Source: an uncultured delta proteobacterium (lineage in GTDB: Bacteria > Myxococcota_A > Polyangia > Fen-1088). From it: a stretch of DNA of 64,000 nucleotides. Positions 55,841-64,000 of this stretch are shown piece after piece. The stretch covers positions 176,457-240,456 of the forward strand of contig CAWCMR010000022.1 in assembly GCA_963796685.1 (NCBI GenBank), given 5' to 3'. The translations under genes and the position numbers were made by a program. The notes beneath the pieces are model-generated. The model did no database searches, was not told the origin of the DNA, and saw only the letters and a program-made list of their open reading frames with translations. How positions within the stretch are numbered: position 1 is the stretch's first letter; each line of letters opens with the position of its first letter.

Positions 55841-55951
55841 GCCGAATCTCCCTTCATCCAATGGCGGCGACGGAAAACAAGCCGCGCAGCGGATCATCGT
55901 AGACGCTCTTCGTCCGCAACTCCAGAACCCCAGGCCTTGTCTCACCGGTCG

Positions 55952-55967
55952 TGGCACGTCCTTCGCA
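55952..55967 (+). promoter_or_regulatory. Sigma54 promoter candidate for intI: TGGCACGTCCTTCGCA
   Basis: GG-N10-GC, 13 bp upstream of ATG 55981. Confidence 0.6.
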
Positions 55968-55980
55968 TTGTCTTTCGCCC

Positions 55981-57036
55981 ATGAAGAACAGCGGCCGAAA
56001 TAGCGACCAAAATGCAACCATCATCCCCCTTGTCCAGCCCCTCGTCCGGCCGAGTCCCGGACAGGCGGCTGGGATTCCGGCCAAACCGCCGAACCTTCTA
56101 GAACAAGCCCGAGAAAGCCTGCGCGCCCGTCATTACAGCGGCCGCACCGAGAAGGCATACCTTGGATGGATCCACCGCTTCATCAGGTTCCATGGCAACC
56201 GCCATCCCGAATCCATGGGTGAAGCCGAGATCGGCGCCTACCTGTCGAACCTGGCCGAGGACAAGGTCAGCTCGTCGACGCAAAACCAGGCCCTGGCTGC
56301 CCTGCTGTTCCTGTACCAGCAAGTGCTCGAGCGCGAGCTGGCCTGGCTTGGGAACATGGTCCACGCCAAACGGCCCAAACAGGTCCCCGTCGTGCTTGGT
56401 CGCCCGGAGGTGCGACTCGTGCTGGACCATCTCGATGGGATACCGTGGTTGGTGGGAGCCCTTCTTTACGGTAGCGGCTTGCGCCTGCTCGAAGCCCTGC
56501 GGTTGCGAGTGAAGGATCTAGACCTGGACCGTCGCGAAATCACCGTGCGCAGGGGCAAGGGCCAAAAGGATCGCCGGACCGTGCTGCCGGATACGTTGGT
56601 CGAGCCGCTACGTTCCCATCTTCTGAGCGTCAAGGCCCAGCACGACCGCGACCTCGGTCAAGGCGCTGGCGCCGTTGTCCTGCCCGACGCTCTCGACCGC
56701 AAGTATCCCAATGCCCCGCGCGAGTGGATCTGGCAGTGGGTCTTCCCCGCGACCCGAACCTACACCGATCCCGCCAGCCACGAAATCCGTCGTCACCACC
56801 TGCACGAAACCGTCATTCAGCGCGCTATCCGCAAAGCCGCCGTGACCGCCGGTATCGCGAAACCCGTGAGCCCACATACGCTGCGTCATTCCTTCGCCAC
56901 CCACATGCTCGAAGCTGGCTATGACATCCGCACCATCCAGGAGCTGCTGGGCCACCGGGACGTGAGCACCACCATGATCTATACCCACGTCCTCAACCGC
57001 GGAGCCTGCGGCGTGCGCAGCCCTCTCGACCGCTGA
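55981..57036 (+). CDS. intI: Integron integrase
   Basis: [34 protein letters not shown], IntI-specific insert ([19 protein letters not shown]), [15 protein letters not shown]. Confidence 0.97.
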
Positions 57037-57221
57037 AAACGAGCAGTTCTGCAGCGTTTTGTTATCGCGTTATCGAGCTTCCCGCAGGCGCGATCCGTGG
57101 CCCGAAAAGCCAGGTACCAGGATCCTCGCACCTGCAACACCGCGGAATCACTTGCCCCCGGCTTCCGTCCGACACAGCCAAGCGGCAATACTCTCGCAGG
57201 AATATTGGGGTACCCTCTGCA

Positions 57222-57240
57222 GGCTAATAGTAAGTTCGAC
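57222..57240 (+). other. attI site (L box GGCTAAT, 5-bp spacer, R box G|TTCGAC)
   Basis: GTTCGAC is the exact reverse complement of the first attC R'' (GTCGAAC). Confidence 0.75.
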
Positions 57241-57297
57241 AGTCACGCATCCGGGTGGGTAGAGGTCTGGCTTGGCTCCCGGCAGCTCTAGCAAACA

Positions 57298-57777
57298 TCA
57301 GCGGCCGCCGGGTGTCTGCGTCGCTCTTACCTGGCGGATTCTCGCTTCCAGGTGGCTGATGTGCCAGTCGAGGTGGCGGTAATAGTCGTGCGCCAGGTAC
57401 TCCAGGCTCAGTTCCTTGTCACCGACGATCCAGACGTTGCCAAGGCGCGCGGGATCCAAGTTGGAAACCAGGTGCAGCACAAAGGCGTTGTAGGACCGCA
57501 GGAGGTCGAGCATGGTCTTCCAAGCCAGGCCCTCGGGCTTTTCGATGGCGACCCAAGGCTCCGCCTCGTAGGGAGGGAAAACCAGACGCTGGGTGCGCTG
57601 CAGGTGCGTGAAGCGCTGGTGGTTGTTGCTGGCCGAATCAACGAGATGGCAGGCGATCTGCTTGATACTCCAGTCCTCGGCGGAAGGCTTGAGGTCGACC
57701 AGCGACTCGGGCACGGACTCGAACAGCGCCAGCAGGCGCGCAAGTGTGGCTTGAAAGCCAGCGATTGTAATTTCCAT
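57298..57777 (-). CDS. DinB-family protein, cassette 1 (inverted)
   Basis: WSIKQIACHLVDS..NNHQRF, DYYRHLDWH. Confidence 0.88.
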   Translation of the reverse strand: MEITIAGFQATLARLLALFESVPESLVDLKPSAEDWSIKQIACHLVDSASNNHQRFTHLQRTQRLVFPPYEAEPWVAIEKPEGLAWKTMLDLLRSYNAFVLHLVSNLDPARLGNVWIVGDKELSLEYLAHDYYRHLDWHISHLEARIRQVRATQTPGGR

Positions 57778-57872
57778 GACACGACCCTAGCCCATCAATC
57801 GGCGTTGTAGAAGGACCGATATCGCTGATTGTGGACGAACCGTGAGGAACGCTCGTCGAGGAGAGGTGTGCT

Positions 57873-57976
57873 GTCGAACAAGCCGTTGCAGCGGATGTGG
57901 TCGCCGCGGGGACATCGTGTAGAATCGCGGCGCCAGCTTGGCGGCGCCCACACCGCTGAACGGCAAGGAGTTGGGC
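57873..57976 (+). other. attC site 1 (104 bp)
   Basis: GTCGAAC-AAGCCGTTGCAGCGG...CCGCTGAACGGC-AAGGA-GTTGGGC. Confidence 0.9.
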
Positions 57977-58068
57977 AGACCGCCGCGCCAGCGCATCTTG
58001 ACTTGGTGGCGCAAACAGAGCAATTCCGCTAATGTGTAGGAGCGAACAGCAGCTAGAACAGGAGAACG

Positions 58069-59145
58069 ATGGGCGACATCAACATCGGCGAAGAAGTGCG
58101 AAAGGCATTTGAAGAAGCCATGCGCGAGCGCGGCCATGCGAACATCCTCCTTGCTGGGCGGACAGGTGTGGGTAAGAGCACACTCGTCAACAGTGTGTTC
58201 CAGGGAGAATTCGCCACAACTGGGCAGGGTCGTCCGGTGACGACTGGGACGAGGGAAATCAACAAGCCCGGGACACCTCTTACCATCTTCGATACTCGTG
58301 GGCTGGAGATGGCCGAGTTCGCCGCGACTATCGCCAACCTAAAGTCCTTCCTTGCCGAGCGTCGTGCGGAACACGATCCGCGCCGACACATTCACGTTGC
58401 CTGGGTCTGCATCGCCGAGGATCTCCGCCGAGTGGAGAATGCCGAGTCAGCCTTGGTTGAAATGCTGGCAGACTTCATGCCAGTGCTGGGGGTGATCACC
58501 AAGGCTCGGGCCGACAACGGCTTTCGCGCTGAGGTTCAGCGCCTTCTTCCGCGCACCACAAATACGCTTCGTGTTCGCTCCATCGCAGAACAGCTTGACG
58601 ATGGTCACAGCCTTCCGCCGATGGGTCTAGTTGAACTCGTCCGCGCCACGGTGGACCTAATCCCGGAGGGACAAAGGCGGGCCTTCGTTGCCGCTCAGAA
58701 GGCTGATCTAGCGCTCAAGCGCAAGAAGTCTCAATTCATTGTGGCCGGAGCTGTGGTAGCAGCAACTGGCGTGGCCTTTATCCCGCTGCCGTTCGCCGAC
58801 GCGCTCGCGCTTGTCCCGATTCAGATTGGTATGCTCGCCGGGATAACTGCCACCTACGGCCTCGATTTTTCCGACGGATTTCTGAGTACCTTACTTGGCG
58901 CCACTGTGGGCAGCGGTGCCGCAACACTTGGTGGAAGAGCTATCGTCGCCGGCCTGCTCAAGCTGATCCCGGGGGCCGGCACCGCGTTGGGCGGTGTGAT
59001 AAGCGCGGCGACTGCTTCTGCATTGACGACGGCTCTCGGGGAAGCTTACATCGCGGCTTTGGACCTTCTGTTCGCAAAACATGGGGGTGAGCAGCCGAGT
59101 GCAGATGAAGTATTGGCTGCCGTGAAGACTCACTTCCACAAATAG
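58069..59145 (+). CDS. Era/MMR_HSR1-like GTPase with C-terminal DUF697-like hydrophobic region, cassette 2
   Basis: GRTGVGKS, DTRG, PLPFADALALVPIQIGML, LLKLIPGAG. Confidence 0.85.
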   Translation: MGDINIGEEVRKAFEEAMRERGHANILLAGRTGVGKSTLVNSVFQGEFATTGQGRPVTTGTREINKPGTPLTIFDTRGLEMAEFAATIANLKSFLAERRAEHDPRRHIHVAWVCIAEDLRRVENAESALVEMLADFMPVLGVITKARADNGFRAEVQRLLPRTTNTLRVRSIAEQLDDGHSLPPMGLVELVRATVDLIPEGQRRAFVAAQKADLALKRKKSQFIVAGAVVAATGVAFIPLPFADALALVPIQIGMLAGITATYGLDFSDGFLSTLLGATVGSGAATLGGRAIVAGLLKLIPGAGTALGGVISAATASALTTALGEAYIAALDLLFAKHGGEQPSADEVLAAVKTHFHK

Positions 59146-59238: not shown

Positions 59239-59266
59239 TTGACCCAAGGTCATACCGGGTTATACT
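59239..59266 (+). promoter_or_regulatory. Cassette-internal sigma70 promoter TTGACC-N16-TATACT
   Basis: Ends 6 bp before the antitoxin ATG; overlapped by ATAC/GTAT repeats. Confidence 0.7.
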
Positions 59267-59272
59267 GGGGGT

Positions 59273-59509
59273 ATGAAGACCGCAGTTTCCATCCCAGACG
59301 AGATCTTTGAGCGGGCTGAGACCCTCGCGCACCGGGCGAAGCGCTCGAGGAGTGAGGTCTATTCGTGTGCACTCAGCGAATACGTGGCGCGCCACGCGCC
59401 GGACAGTGTCACAGAGGCGATGAACCGTGTTCTCGACGACGTGAAGGAGCCGGCCGATGGATTTGCATCGCGTGCTGCCCGGCGCACGCTGGAGCGTAAC
59501 GAGTGGTGA
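59273..59509 (+). CDS. RHH antitoxin, cassette 3
   Basis: MKTAVSIPDEIFERAE..SRSEVY. Confidence 0.88.
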   Translation: MKTAVSIPDEIFERAETLAHRAKRSRSEVYSCALSEYVARHAPDSVTEAMNRVLDDVKEPADGFASRAARRTLERNEW

Positions 59510-59850
59510 CGGTCTCTCAGGGAGAGGTGTGGTGGGCGGATCTCGGCGAACCACGCGGATCGAAGCCAGGATTCCGACGGCCGGTATTGATCATACAAGG
59601 TGATGCTTTGAACCGGAGTCGAATCGCGACTGCCGTATGCGTTGCCTTGACCAGTAACGTGAAGTGGGCTTCTGCCCCGGGCAACGTTCTTCTTTCCGAG
59701 AGCGCGACCGGGCTACCCAGGGAATCGGTGGCGAATGTCTCGCAGATTGTGACTCTCGACAAGTCCGAGTTGACTGCGCGAGTGGGCAAACTGCCCAAGG
59801 CGAAACTGGAGCTTGTCCTGTCCGGAGTGGACGTGGTGCTTGGACGGTAA
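59503..59850 (+). CDS. mazF: MazF/PemK endoribonuclease toxin, cassette 3
   Basis: QGEVWWADL..GSKPGFRRPVLIIQ, SVANVSQIVTLDK. Confidence 0.92.
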   Translation: MVTVSQGEVWWADLGEPRGSKPGFRRPVLIIQGDALNRSRIATAVCVALTSNVKWASAPGNVLLSESATGLPRESVANVSQIVTLDKSELTARVGKLPKAKLELVLSGVDVVLGR

Positions 59851-59856
59851 GCCGCC

Positions 59857-59927
59857 GCCGAACAAGCCGTTGAAGCGGATGGTCGGCCGCGGACGGCCGC
59901 CCACCGCTTAACGGCAAGGCGTTCGGT
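59857..59927 (+). other. attC site 3 (71 bp)
   Basis: GCCGAAC...GTTCGGT. Confidence 0.92.
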
Positions 59928-60053
59928 GGGCGCGCGGGCCAGCTTGGAGATCGCTGGCCGTCGGTGGGTGCGCGGGTCTTCTCTCGCACGTTGGTCTGGA
60001 GGAAGCGGACGACAAAGACCGTGCCGGCGAGGTGCTTCAGATGGCTGGCCGCC

Positions 60054-60220
60054 GCCGAACCGGCCGTTGCAGCGGTCGAGGGCCTGTCAACTCTCGGTCG
60101 ACGGTCAACGAGCCGGGGCCGCGCGGCTCATCAGACGAACGAAGGCCGCCGCGCGGCCCCGGCAGTGCTACTATCGATCAGCCGGGACGGCCCTCGCCGC
60201 TGAACGGCACGCCGTTCGGC
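60054..60220 (+). other. attC site 4 (167 bp, branched), closing a gene-less cassette
   Basis: GCCGAAC-CGGCCGTTGCAGCGG...CCGCTGAACGGC-ACGCC-GTTCGGC. Confidence 0.85.
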
Positions 60221-60373
60221 GGACGCGAATGAGCCCCTGTCGGTAGTGGGACGATGCCATTCCGAGATTCCGGGTCACAGCGGAAGGAGCCGCGGTGTGT
60301 GATGGACACCTCCATGCGAAGGTCACGCCAACGCTTGTCGCCGTTGAACCGACCATTGGAGTACGATGTGGCG

Positions 60374-62440
60374 ATGGACCACGATGATGTGCTGGAGGCA
60401 AATCGCTCTGCCTTTGAGCGGAACTTCAAGATACAGGATCTCTCCGGTGCGGACATTCTCCGCTTCCTGGCTGCATCCGAGGTGGAAGCCACATGGATTC
60501 GCGCCTTTCAGGACGGTAAGGTGTGGGCTCTCGTCGCCAAGGCCAAGTCGAAGCCCCTCGTCGAAGGCCTTGGACTGAATCGTGAGTTCCTGATCCTTAT
60601 TTCATCGTTTGACGACTTCCAACCTCGAACGCTTTCCCTACGCCAGGCAGTAGATTCATCCCTCCAGACACCGGGACGCCTCGACAACATCACAATCGTA
60701 GTGAGTTCTGATCCCGTTCTTCGCGACATCCTTCCAAAGCTCGAAGACCCACGGCAGATCCTCCTCGGGATTGCGCCATCAGAGGTCCTCTCCGCGCTTC
60801 AAGGGGGCCATCCAAGTGAGCGGTTTCGACAGTTCCTTCAGGAACGGCTGTACGCGCGAGACTTCTTCGACCGATCGGGACCGGTCTACGGTGCAGATTT
60901 CTTTGGCAGAGAGAAGACGCTGCAAGACGTGGCGGTACAGCTGAAACGTGGCAGTCATGTAGGATTGTATGGCCTCCGAAAGGTTGGCAAAACCTCGATC
61001 ATCAATGCCCTCCGCGAGCGCCAGGCAACCCTCATACCCGAGGCTCACTTCGTTCACCTTGACCTGCTCTCTGTGACACCGGCGAATCGAAACTATCGGT
61101 TCCTGTACTTCCTGATCGCGACAGAGCTGAAGAAGCTTGGCCTACCCGCGACGTCCGTTCCATCCAATGGACGATTCGACGCAATAGCCGACCTGAATGC
61201 GTTCGAAAGAGGCTTTGACGCCGACCTTCGTGAGGGGCTTGCCAAGCTTCGGGAGCGAGGGCAGCGTCTCGTCCTCATCCTCGATGAAATAGAGCGGCTG
61301 TTTCCGGCTCTAGACGTGCGCACTGGGTTTGACGGCTACGATGCGTTCCTGGAGTACGTCCGCGGTCTATCCCAGTCCGCCGGTCCCTTGTCGCTGATGG
61401 TCGTTGGCGTAAATCCTCACGTATCCGAAGCCGAGCTTCTCGGAAATCGCCAGAATCCAATGTTCGGCTTCTTCGTTACTCGGTACGCTCCGCCAATGTC
61501 CGCCGAAGAGGTTAACGAAATGGTCAAGACCCTCGGAAGATCTTCCGGGGCCCACTTTGATCATGAGGCGATCACCCTGATGCATTCGTATCTCGGTGGC
61601 CACCCATTCCTTATCCGCCGGTACTGCTCGCTGGTGATCAAGGATAGAACCCGCCCGGCTCAAATATCCCCTACTGACATCGAGAATAATCGGGAGCGAT
61701 TCCTTCGACAAGAGACGAGCCTCTTCGCGGAGATGGTTTCAGTAGTTAAGGATTTTTATCCGGAGGAGTTCAGCGCGCTCCATCGAATTGCGACCGGGGA
61801 CCACCTTAATGCCAGCCACTTCAACCGCAGAATCGTCGCACACCTTGAGGGATACCAGCTTGTCGAGGAGAGCGGCGGCAAGCTCGAGATGCGATACCGC
61901 CTTATGAAGGATTGGATGCTCGGTGTCAGCAGAAGAGTAGCATCTGAGGTGAGCAAGCCCCTCGTCTCGTTTGGTAGCGAGCGCGATGACGCTGGCCCTA
62001 ATACAATCGACCACGAATTGATCGCCGACACAATCAAGGAGCTGGAACTTTCGCTGCGAGGCAAGATTCGTCAGGTCCTTGAGGAGCGCTACGCCGGGAA
62101 GGCTGACCAACGCGTTGAACTGGCAATTGGCGCGGATGCTTTGACCATGGCCCAGGAACGGCTCGCTAGATCGTTGCGCTTTCGTCCGGCTTCGGACAGC
62201 TCGACCTCTGAAATACTCGAGTTCCTGTACATCGGTGATCTCGAGCGAATTATCTGTGGGAACGAATGGCAGCACTTTCGAGAAATCTTTGGCGACAAGA
62301 AGGAAACGCAGAGAAATCTCCAGATCGCTGCGGGATGTCGGACCGAGGTGCAACACTTTCGGACACTACCAAGGCGCGAGTGCGCAAAGGCATGGGTCGC
62401 AGCATCCGAACTACTCGACAAGGTTGGGAATGATGGGTGA
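60374..62440 (+). CDS. STAND/AAA ATPase with winged helix and C-terminal HEPN-like domain, cassette 5
   Basis: FFGRE, GLRKVGKT, LVLILDEIE, GGHPFL; C-terminal LEFLYIGDL..W..F..R-TEVQ-H; start could be 60254 or 60302. Confidence 0.8.
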   Translation: MDHDDVLEANRSAFERNFKIQDLSGADILRFLAASEVEATWIRAFQDGKVWALVAKAKSKPLVEGLGLNREFLILISSFDDFQPRTLSLRQAVDSSLQTPGRLDNITIVVSSDPVLRDILPKLEDPRQILLGIAPSEVLSALQGGHPSERFRQFLQERLYARDFFDRSGPVYGADFFGREKTLQDVAVQLKRGSHVGLYGLRKVGKTSIINALRERQATLIPEAHFVHLDLLSVTPANRNYRFLYFLIATELKKLGLPATSVPSNGRFDAIADLNAFERGFDADLREGLAKLRERGQRLVLILDEIERLFPALDVRTGFDGYDAFLEYVRGLSQSAGPLSLMVVGVNPHVSEAELLGNRQNPMFGFFVTRYAPPMSAEEVNEMVKTLGRSSGAHFDHEAITLMHSYLGGHPFLIRRYCSLVIKDRTRPAQISPTDIENNRERFLRQETSLFAEMVSVVKDFYPEEFSALHRIATGDHLNASHFNRRIVAHLEGYQLVEESGGKLEMRYRLMKDWMLGVSRRVASEVSKPLVSFGSERDDAGPNTIDHELIADTIKELELSLRGKIRQVLEERYAGKADQRVELAIGADALTMAQERLARSLRFRPASDSSTSEILEFLYIGDLERIICGNEWQHFREIFGDKKETQRNLQIAAGCRTEVQHFRTLPRRECAKAWVAASELLDKVGNDG

Positions 62441-62447
62441 GGCCGCC

Positions 62448-62518
62448 GCCGAACAAGGCGTTGCACCCGACGATCGGCCGCGGACGGCCGCTCGCGGGTG
62501 AACGCCAACGCGTTCGGC
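62448..62518 (+). other. attC site 5 (71 bp)
   Basis: GCCGAAC...GTTCGGC. Confidence 0.92.
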
Positions 62519-62531
62519 AGACCAGGCTCCC

Positions 62532-62601: not shown

Positions 62602-64000
62602 CAATGCCAGTCGGTTAAGCATTTGAAGGCCGTTTTCTCGGGAAATTGCTCATTTTGATCTTCACGGCCCGTGGATATCTGCGGGCCGTGCGCCGCTCTG
62701 GGAGAACAAGGCTGGTGAAGAGCTCTCGCATGGTCTTGAGGCGAGTAGGCAAAGCGCCGGGCGAGGCGAGCGCACACCATGACCAGGTGTCACAGATGAT
62801 CCGAAGTGACGTGACGAAGCTGATGCGGGTGGGCTCGACGCCGAAATCGTCGGCAGTCCTTTCCATTTCGAGGCGAATCAAGTTGTACGCGAGAAGAATG
62901 CCCCACAATTCCTGCTCGACGCCAGCGACGCTGCGGCAGCGGATGCTTTCGAGACGGTCGAGCATATCGGTCTTGATTTCGCCATAGCCCAGTTCCAGCT
63001 CCCAGCGCTCGTGATAAAGGCGGGCGACCTCGGCAGCGGGGAAGGCGTCGGGGTCGAGCATCGAGGTGAGCACGATCTGAGGACGGAATCCCTTCACCTG
63101 GTAGGTGATCGCACGTGCCAGATAGGTCGCTGGCAAACTTGGGTCCTGCTTTCGCGCCTCGCGCGAAACCGTCAACTCGACCAGGTCGTCGTTCTTCCCG
63201 AGGTGCTCCACGACGCGCCATTTTGTGGTCGACTTGGCGCGAGTCAGCCAATGGCGATTCTTTCCATCGCGGGCCAGCGGCACCAGGATTCCGGCTGCCA
63301 GGAAGCCGCGGTCGACCATCACCAGCGCATTGTCCGGCACGGCTCGCCACAGAAACGCGCTCAGCGTGATTTCACTGTCTTCGTAGGGGCCGAATTCGGC
63401 GGCCACCAGAATGTGCGAACGCAACGCCATCAACGCGGCGATTCGAACCAGCGGATAGCCACTGTCGCCTCGGTCGCCTCGGGTTCCACCGAAATGAGCG
63501 CGATTTTCCGGAGAGTCTGCCACGCGAAGCGTGGACCCATCCACACCGTAGAGCGCCAGGCCTCTCCATGCGTGCTTGCGCGCGCTCTCGTGGCCCCACT
63601 TCTGAGCGCTCATCTCGAAGATCCGTTCCAGCGGCTCGGCACCAACGCGCGCCCGAGCCTCAGCGACCGTGCTGGGAACAACCGTTGCTCGTGGTCCAGG
63701 CAGAACCAAATTCAGCTTCCCAACCAAGTCCGCAATAGGCCACTTCCGAAACATGGCCATTCCAATCACCAGCCACACCACCTGGTCGGCCGGAAGCCGT
63801 CGCTTTCGCACCGTGGCTGTTCCAGTCGCCGCCAGAGCCTCGGCCACCCACGCAGGGTCAATGTGCTGCCTGATGCTCTCGAACTGCTCGGGCGCCGTGA
63901 ATACGCTTACCGTCTTGAGGGAACTATCCAGATGCATGACCTTCTCCATCGAAGATCGATGCATGGTGACTTCGCTTCTTGCCTAAAGGCAAGAAGCGAA
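62602..64000 (-). mobile_element. IS4-family insertion sequence; its other end lies beyond the window
   Basis: Terminal repeat CAATGCCAGTCGGTTAAG resembles the IS4 end; subterminal hairpin at 63971-64000. Confidence 0.88.
62615..63937 (-). CDS. IS4-family DDE transposase
   Basis: VRKRRLP, VDGS, VDRGF, YHERWELELGYGEIK (YREK motif). Confidence 0.95.
   Translation of the reverse strand: MHLDSSLKTVSVFTAPEQFESIRQHIDPAWVAEALAATGTATVRKRRLPADQVVWLVIGMAMFRKWPIADLVGKLNLVLPGPRATVVPSTVAEARARVGAEPLERIFEMSAQKWGHESARKHAWRGLALYGVDGSTLRVADSPENRAHFGGTRGDRGDSGYPLVRIAALMALRSHILVAAEFGPYEDSEITLSAFLWRAVPDNALVMVDRGFLAAGILVPLARDGKNRHWLTRAKSTTKWRVVEHLGKNDDLVELTVSREARKQDPSLPATYLARAITYQVKGFRPQIVLTSMLDPDAFPAAEVARLYHERWELELGYGEIKTDMLDRLESIRCRSVAGVEQELWGILLAYNLIRLEMERTADDFGVEPTRISFVTSLRIICDTWSWCALASPGALPTRLKTMRELFTSLVLPERRTARRYPRAVKIKMSNFPRKRPSNA

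Follow-up and report, generated by a model that had tools for sequence, protein, structure and literature searches.

A single-gene integron cassette encoding a STAND NTPase with a Swt1-like HEPN tail, a candidate one-protein defense switch

The gene and its predicted protein

The window analyzed here is a 64,000-nucleotide stretch of contig CAWCMR010000022.1 from an uncultured delta proteobacterium. Near its right end lies an integron gene cassette whose single gene encodes a 688-amino-acid (aa) protein, here called the STAND-HEPN protein, with a predicted restriction endonuclease (REase)-like front domain, a STAND NTPase core and a Swt1-like HEPN tail (Table 1). The open reading frame (ORF) has no internal stop and remains open back to position 60254; its start methionine is shared by P0003, a homolog with 84% identity. 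After the ORF comes an attC site that has R'' and R' boxes and folds into a hairpin on its bottom strand; the array includes an IntI integrase, and none of 200 shuffles folded as well as either flanking hairpin (60051-60222 and 62445-62520). With the integrase upstream, the two hairpins bear out the single-gene cassette implied by the title of a first-pass annotation. Codon usage was also as noted there, less GC-biased than that of the backbone: GC content at third codon positions is 0.63 in the ORF, compared with 0.85-0.90 for four genes of the backbone and 0.70 for uvrC, and codon adaptation is 0.47 vs 0.59-0.75 in five reference genes.

Table 1. Coordinates of the STAND-HEPN gene, its predicted domains and motifs, and the surrounding integron features.
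Feature	Position	Strand	Basis
ORF, 688 aa: predicted REase-like N-terminal domain, STAND NTPase, winged helix, Swt1-like HEPN	60374..62440	+	translation, homologs, Pfam, model, fold search
N-terminal (front) domain, aa 1-160, predicted REase-like alpha/beta fold; predicted sensor or regulator	60374..60853	+	model, fold search, conservation
STAND NTPase module, aa 161-520: nucleotide-binding domain, helical domain with GxP, winged helix; predicted MNS type	60854..61933	+	fold search, Pfam
Walker A GLRKVGKT, aa 200-207, K206	60971..60994	+	sequence, conservation
Walker B VLILDE, aa 300-305, D304/E305	61271..61288	+	sequence, conservation
GGHP, aa 408-411, GxP motif of the STAND helical domain	61595..61606	+	sequence, conservation
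C-terminal all-helical Swt1-like HEPN, aa 545-688, predicted RNase effector	62006..62437	+	Pfam at family level, model, Atlas
R-x4-H motif RTEVQH, aa 656-661, R656/H661	62339..62356	+	sequence, homolog alignment
Integron gene cassette, single gene, 2298 bp, crossover G/TT to crossover G/TT	60215..62512	+	sequence, repeat spacing 2298 (family D2), hairpins
attC of this cassette, 4 nt past the stop codon	62445..62520	+	bottom-strand hairpin z -6.5
attC of the apparently empty cassette before this one; its R' box forms the left border here	60051..60222	+	hairpin z -7.8
Integron integrase IntI, upstream of the array, same strand	55951..57036	+	TIGR02249 E 2e-138, 461 bits vs cut-off 265
Upstream cassette: RHH antitoxin and MazF/PemK toxin	59273..59850	+	Pfam
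IS4 transposase, directly after attC	62615..63964	-	sequence scans

On its motifs and predicted fold, the core is an MNS-type STAND NTPase with a winged helix. Such proteins are defined by a nucleotide-binding domain with an N-terminal hhGRE motif, Walker A and B motifs and sensor-1, followed by a helical domain with GxP and a winged helix. Besides the motifs of Table 1, the protein has FFGRE at residues 176-180 and a sensor-1 asparagine, N347. The P-loop ATPase of the first-pass annotation is intact, with all the motifs listed there (GLRKVGKT, VLILDE, GGHP and, in the tail, RTEVQH) present in the translation; G200, K206, D304, E305, G408/G409 and P411 are conserved in at least 98% of 186 stored proteins. 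The best fold match of residues 163-517 was PDB 2qen (Z 21.9, root-mean-square deviation [rmsd] 5.2, 319 aligned residues), followed by 2fna (Z 19.5) and then by plant NLRs, Orc1/Cdc6 and TnsC. Alignment to 2qen and 2fna extends to residue 516-517, in support of the winged helix that had been proposed. Pfam matches to the core were nSTAND6, AAA_16 and AAA_35, and Foldseek matched it to Avs3 (E 2e-8) and Avs4 (E 8e-7). By sequence, the family profile found only 2fna (E 0.03) among solved structures, and no solved relative was found for the whole protein. The full-length model had a mean predicted local distance difference test score (pLDDT) of 81.

The winged helix is followed by about 170 aa, modeled as a domain of six to seven helices. 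At the family level this tail is a Swt1-like HEPN, as judged by profile matches, with a weak score in this copy; the HEPN domain with R-x4-H named in the first-pass annotation stands on the same family evidence. HEPN_Swt1 (PF18731) matched 11 of 16 close homologs at E<=0.05 (best 4.2e-7) and, among tails scanned in isolation, 9 of 35, and a precomputed PF18731 annotation exists on P0013 and P0239. The family was also assigned to 18 of 30 Atlas matches to this tail (best score 0.90, 177 features shared). The full-length model is all-helical at the tail; the fold-search list was filled by ATPase matches, and a PDB sequence search found no match for the tail beyond chance. Searching the source genome with PF18731 gave no match, as did the control.

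The front domain had been described as an unrecognized domain of about 160 aa. It indeed has no Pfam match, only chance matches in a PDB sequence search, and a single Atlas match (0.85) without a family. It is not featureless, being predicted to have an REase-like fold. Modeled alone from 48 sequences (pLDDT 94.9), it matched N.BspD6I (Z 6.8-6.9), RPB5 and FokI (6.7), AF1548 and EndoMS, over a range of Z 6.3-6.9. Most of the top matches share the restriction-endonuclease fold. The matches are weak, with rmsd 4.3-4.5, every Z below 8 and a best Foldseek E of 9e-3 (RPB5). Among the 186 proteins, there is no conserved aspartate on strand 2 and no (D/E/Q)xK on strand 3, the residues of a PD-(D/E)xK site; only E71, R85 and R102 are more than 90% conserved. 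The model weakly suggests an REase-like fold without catalytic residues.

Family, exchanged tails and genomic neighbors

The near clade comprises fifteen full-length homologs with 38-84% identity (Shimodaira-Hasegawa-like approximate likelihood ratio support 100; 12 rows used). A 36-sequence profile retrieved 1028 representatives at E<=1e-30. Among the best 150 of these, 110 have the front domain, STAND core and Swt1-like tail, 16 have another tail, and 24 are mostly fragments. In the genome collection, the whole architecture occurs in one ORF at 32 of 80 loci, and a further locus is truncated at the end of its contig. The family is patchily spread across phyla. Relatives span at least eight bacterial phyla and methanogenic archaea; by record title, the bacterial sources are Bacteroidota, Bacillota, Actinomycetota, Myxococcota, Chloroflexota, Ignavibacteriota, Pseudomonadota and an Acholeplasmataceae genome. 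A search of 46 genomes of the same family (7 of the same genus) did not find the gene, and of 300 further genomes from the class, 3 had a partial match. No match was found in phage genomes with the relative P0040 as the query. A relative is present on 16 Klebsiella plasmid records, 15 of them with >90% query coverage. One full-length example, WP_094716518.1 on a conjugative IncF plasmid (L101, 7971-9974), sits between replication and resolvase genes on one side and a cluster containing a HEC-04-like ATPase and VapBC on the other.

The 16 other tails comprise four TIR, two Schlafen (AlbA_2), eight helical tails with R-x4-H and two small helical tails; genome loci added eight protein kinase and two TCAD2 tails. 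Ser/Thr-kinase tails were seen at L006, L008, L011, L020, L022, L041, L048 and L075 (Actinomycetota, a cyanobacterium, Planctomycetota and others), and the five included in the tree form one branch. In a quick tree of 100 ATPase cores, rooted at the midpoint, TIR tails appear at four places and Schlafen tails at two, scattered among HEPN tails. This scatter suggests that tails have been exchanged repeatedly across the family; no direction is claimed. The second helical tail, of about 170 aa (P0184, P0197, P0204, P0208, P0210, P0212, P0216, P0222), has no Pfam or PADLOC match. It has no profile similarity to the Swt1-like tail and is therefore kept unassigned.

Domain scans of 51 selected proteins also revealed additions in front, namely a cold-shock domain in seven and OST-HTH in two. 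The front-domain profile matches 8 of 11 cold-shock-TPR-STAND proteins, which have no tail. At four loci, the design is split over two adjacent STAND genes (L003, 7125-11065, and L111-L113). The second STAND there ends in a HEPN domain with R-x4-H that is 26-29% identical to the tail studied here; in other pairs it ends in TIR (L024 and L054) or CHAT (L007). The first STAND of the pair groups with the cold-shock-TPR STANDs, and the effector STAND keeps an intact Walker A (GGRQSGKT). No PADLOC model covers the pair, a candidate sensor/effector hetero-oligomer.

To describe the neighborhood, we scanned 132 proteins of >=100 aa encoded up to three genes upstream and two downstream at the 32 loci. 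A neighbor was called defensive at E<=1e-75, excluding housekeeping cross-hits (DEAD helicases, ABC ATPase, ClpB and weak Cas12f). Nine of 32 loci had such neighbors: type I and II restriction-modification (RM) systems, Wadjet, Mokosh, Dodola and three PDC candidates. Control regions were taken from 20 of these genomes, on the same contig and about 20 kb or more away (97 proteins, E<=1e-30); they yielded no clear hit, one ambiguous partial hit and two housekeeping cross-hits. In the matched genomes, a defense neighbor was thus present at 8/20 loci vs 0-1/20 control regions (Fisher p 0.003 or 0.02). With the null of 0.0153 from PMC13581612, which was obtained with a different tool, 9/32 corresponds to p 9e-10 and a strict count of 4/30 to p 1e-3. 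At three Ruminococcus loci (L050, L052, L076), there is a 4-nt overlap between the gene and the stop of a type II methyltransferase gene upstream of it, which suggests one operon with the methyltransferase.

A predicted sensor, switch and effector

A defense role for the STAND-HEPN protein, as proposed in the first-pass annotation, is likely. Family, context and domain-swap evidence all support it. By analogy with characterized proteins, we lean toward a one-protein abortive-infection RNase switch gated by the STAND module, with a sensor in front and a HEPN effector behind. The polarity is read as sensor, switch and effector because the back end is where effectors differ and the front end where binding modules build up. 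A phage-derived signal would be read at the front end, and its binding would drive oligomerization of the STAND ATPase. Oligomerization would pair the HEPN tails into an active RNase, whose cleavage of RNA would halt the infected cell. ADP/ATP switching, oligomerization and a composite active site in the HEPN dimer are inferred from established STAND and HEPN biology.

RNase catalysis by the tail is probable, judging from other HEPN domains. We counted the motif by alignment column in 155 stored proteins, with the window protein counted twice. The spacing was R-x4-H in 33, R-x5-H in 1 and R-x3-H in 113; the Arg was missing in 3 and either residue in 8, and the His was kept in 150. R-x4-H occurs in 14 of 16 close homologs. 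The canonical motif seen by the first-pass annotation therefore holds for this clade and not for the family as a whole, where R-x3-H prevails. That prevalence, together with the three losses of Arg, would also suit a HEPN-like tail that is non-catalytic and acts as an RNA-binding or adaptor module in a signaling STAND. In some relatives the terminal domain is adaptor-like (small helical or TCAD2), and the HEPN of eukaryotic Swt1 is described as inactive in PMC3710099. However, 147 of 155 proteins retain both an Arg and the His, with an overall tail identity of about 20%, and the spacing in this clade is canonical. We consider a non-catalytic tail improbable.

Whether sensing takes place at the front end is an even call. 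The front domain as sensor, with nucleic acid as its ligand, is the part of the RNase-switch interpretation with the least support. It fits the proposal in PMC12839542, itself a prediction, that sensing is the role of inactive REase domains paired with NTPases. Alternatively, the protein could be a defense RNase whose front domain is only structural or an autoinhibitory lid, in which case the ATPase or winged helix would receive the trigger, be it DNA, a phage protein or an altered nucleotide state of the host. Next to the MNS STANDs, the closest folds are those of Orc1/Cdc6 and TnsC, in which the AAA+ and winged-helix parts bind DNA. Furthermore, the effector-bearing STAND of the two-gene relatives lacks a front domain, and the front-domain profile had no match at E<0.05 in the upstream partners tested. 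In contrast, RNA-binding and TPR domains are added before the N-terminal domain and were never seen behind the winged helix, which marks the front as the input end, and R85 and R102 are conserved at 91-96%. On balance, a mere lid is unlikely.

Several observations weigh against the sensor-switch-effector interpretation. The REase-like Z scores below 8 lie in the tool's range for common arrangements, with Argonaute MID and receiver domains scoring nearly equally, and three conserved front-domain positions across effector types fit a structural role as well as a sensor. The tail of the window copy reaches only E=0.074 against HEPN_Swt1 (13.8 bits vs a cut-off of 27.5). The common R-x3-H spacing is shorter than the canonical R-x4-6-H, and the close homologs P0005 and P0015 lack the Arg. 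Three of the nine loci with defense neighbors are related Ruminococcus loci, and three rest on untested PDC models; merging the Ruminococcus loci gives 6/18 vs 0-1/18 (p 0.019 or 0.088). There was no recognized defense neighbor at 23 of 32 loci, and several Bacteroidota copies lie among housekeeping genes.

The scarcity of defense neighbors at most loci would also suit a stress- or mobile-element-related toxin (an addiction module, an anti-plasmid factor or a dormancy switch) that is not directed at phages. The window copy stands two cassettes past a MazF toxin-antitoxin cassette, relatives adjoin replication and partition genes on the 16 Klebsiella plasmid records, and serine recombinases or insertion sequence genes adjoin 5 of 32 loci. 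Against such a toxin, no conserved antitoxin gene was found beside family members at the loci, and the swapped tails (TIR, Schlafen, kinase) and neighbors (RM, Wadjet, Mokosh, Dodola) are of anti-phage types. A role of this kind has little probability in our estimate.

More tentatively, and with doubt prevailing, the family may be part of a large class of reversed NLR-like receptors of bacteria and archaea. In these, a dead REase front would sense invader nucleic acid, and a STAND ring would fire an exchangeable C-terminal effector (HEPN, TIR, Schlafen or kinase), within one protein or in co-assembling sensor and effector STANDs. The front would be extended by cold-shock, OST-HTH or TPR domains. 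The STAND sensors dissected in the text of PMC13581612 all recognize phage proteins via long C-terminal repeats. The present family has no repeat sensor yet bears marks of defense (effector swapping, patchy spread and defense neighbors), which raises the question of how a STAND without such a sensor detects infection. Should a dead nuclease fold indeed read nucleic acid, prokaryotes would have an NLR-like receptor for nucleic acids. The chassis occurs naturally with HEPN, TIR, Schlafen or kinase tails, which supplies built-in controls, and a single gene of some 690 aa is easily tested. The interest rests in the family rather than in the window copy.

Among the closest known systems are the Avs (AVAST) proteins (Avs1-24, PMC13581612), which share the STAND switch with a winged helix, the single gene and the interchangeable toxic effector. 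As described in that text, Avs proteins have a long C-terminal sensor of TPR-like or other repeats (>=400 aa) and mostly an N-terminal effector, whereas here the predicted effector takes up the residues past the winged helix and there is no repeat sensor. Pfam scans of this protein and close homologs gave no TPR match after the STAND module. The first-pass annotation had set the protein apart from Avs by its C-terminal effector. This distinction fails, since the source data of PMC13581612 include a tested EhAvs10 effector mutant, E1263A-K1265A, which places that effector near the C terminus. The real difference is the missing repeat sensor. The protein would work like an Avs-type defense protein, but because this defining part is absent we do not count it among the named Avs families. 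Proteins with fewer than 400 residues after the NTPase were omitted from the sensor clustering in PMC13581612.

The best structural matches, the MNS-clade STANDs PAB2304 (2qen) and SSO1545 (2fna), are solved proteins without a front domain or HEPN tail. AAA_35, which we take to be the Npun2340/2341 family, was matched in all 16 of 16 close homologs and, below its curated cut-off, in this protein (25.9 vs 27 bits); like that paired family, relatives of this protein also occur as adjacent STAND pairs. Fusions of the same HEPN family to STAND, predicted to be defense RNases, are described in PMC3710099 (Table 1, Npun_F6454 and others), also with TPR and S1, and cold-shock or S1 domains occur in some members. 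Compared by description only, these have an N-terminal HEPN and a C-terminal OB-fold, an order reversed here, where TPR is also absent. The nSTAND2 system of PMC8195603 likewise has a STAND with a variable C-terminal effector, often HEPN. It consists of two genes and its effector-bearing STAND is inactive, whereas here one gene lies between attC sites with Walker A and B intact; Pfam scans of this protein and close homologs included no nSTAND2 match. DARNA/PD-T7-3, a regulated HEPN with R-x4-H that single-stranded DNA turns on via oligomerization (10.64898/2026.02.22.705581), was rejected as the identity of this protein, having an N-terminal HEPN and no ATPase as described there. DS-11, with HEPN_Swt1 under CBS control (PMC13092281), is similar in its regulated HEPN effector. 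DARNA/PD-T7-3, DS-11 and ApeA are all HEPN abortive-infection RNases, none with a STAND NTPase.

PADLOC 2.0 (2023 library), run on this protein, 10 relatives and 28 variants or neighbors, returned no model covering the chassis and no Avs model. Its matches were to partial domains only: PDC-M34B on the tail, ThsB on TIR tails and PD-T4-6 on kinase tails. This result agrees with the first-pass annotation, which had called the protein a candidate undescribed anti-phage system. NCBIfam gave nothing near cut-off for this protein. No description of the architecture was found in the literature text covered, with the Supplementary Tables of PMC13581612 lying outside it. Searching parts of the supplements of PMC13092281 and PMC13581612 for the Walker A motif as text gave nothing, a weak negative given that long cells are cut there. 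It may well be that the 589 clades of PMC13581612 include the ATPase clade, and the architecture may be listed in an Aravind-group supplement.

The integron array and sequence variants

In order, the array comprises DinB, GTPase-DUF697, RHH-MazF, an apparently empty cassette and the STAND-HEPN cassette, with IS4 at the contig end. Five attC repeats, at 57870, 59146, 59854, 60051 and 62445, form bottom-strand hairpins with z -3.5 to -7.8. IntI shares its strand with the attC sites, and the array starts past the 3' end of the integrase (55951-57977); the usual integron has a divergent integrase, and the arrangement in the window is the reverse. The DinB gene of the first cassette is on the opposite strand. 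The next cassette (58069-59145) encodes a GTPase and DUF697 protein with weak PADLOC matches to LeoBC and mad8 (E about 8e-7) and is possibly another defense cassette. Between the MazF and STAND-HEPN cassettes lies a 291-bp cassette (59924-60214) whose attC is long (172 nt) and in which no clear gene is seen. The RHH-MazF cassette has a sigma-70-like promoter (59239-59266), and none was found within the STAND-HEPN cassette; read-through into the STAND-HEPN gene is possible. Since the contig stops at 64000, a continuation of the array may lie elsewhere.

Integron cassettes are known to store defense genes (10.1101/2024.07.02.601719). That the family is generally cassette-borne was considered and rejected: a downstream attC-like hairpin was flagged at 3 of 63 single-gene loci, duplicates included, and was strong only at the window copy. 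Genome-wide, there were 87 attC-like matches at E<=1 and three full integrases.

No RNA data set was listed as carrying the gene. Fragments about 95-97% alike were present in four DNA metagenome runs, whose contig joints at attC sites are indistinguishable from repeat artefacts. At position 61056, the contigs of both runs that cover the base (X1 and X4) have one extra letter, which would cause a frameshift, and the allele of the window is in frame with the homologs. This variant is possibly an inactivated allele in related strains.

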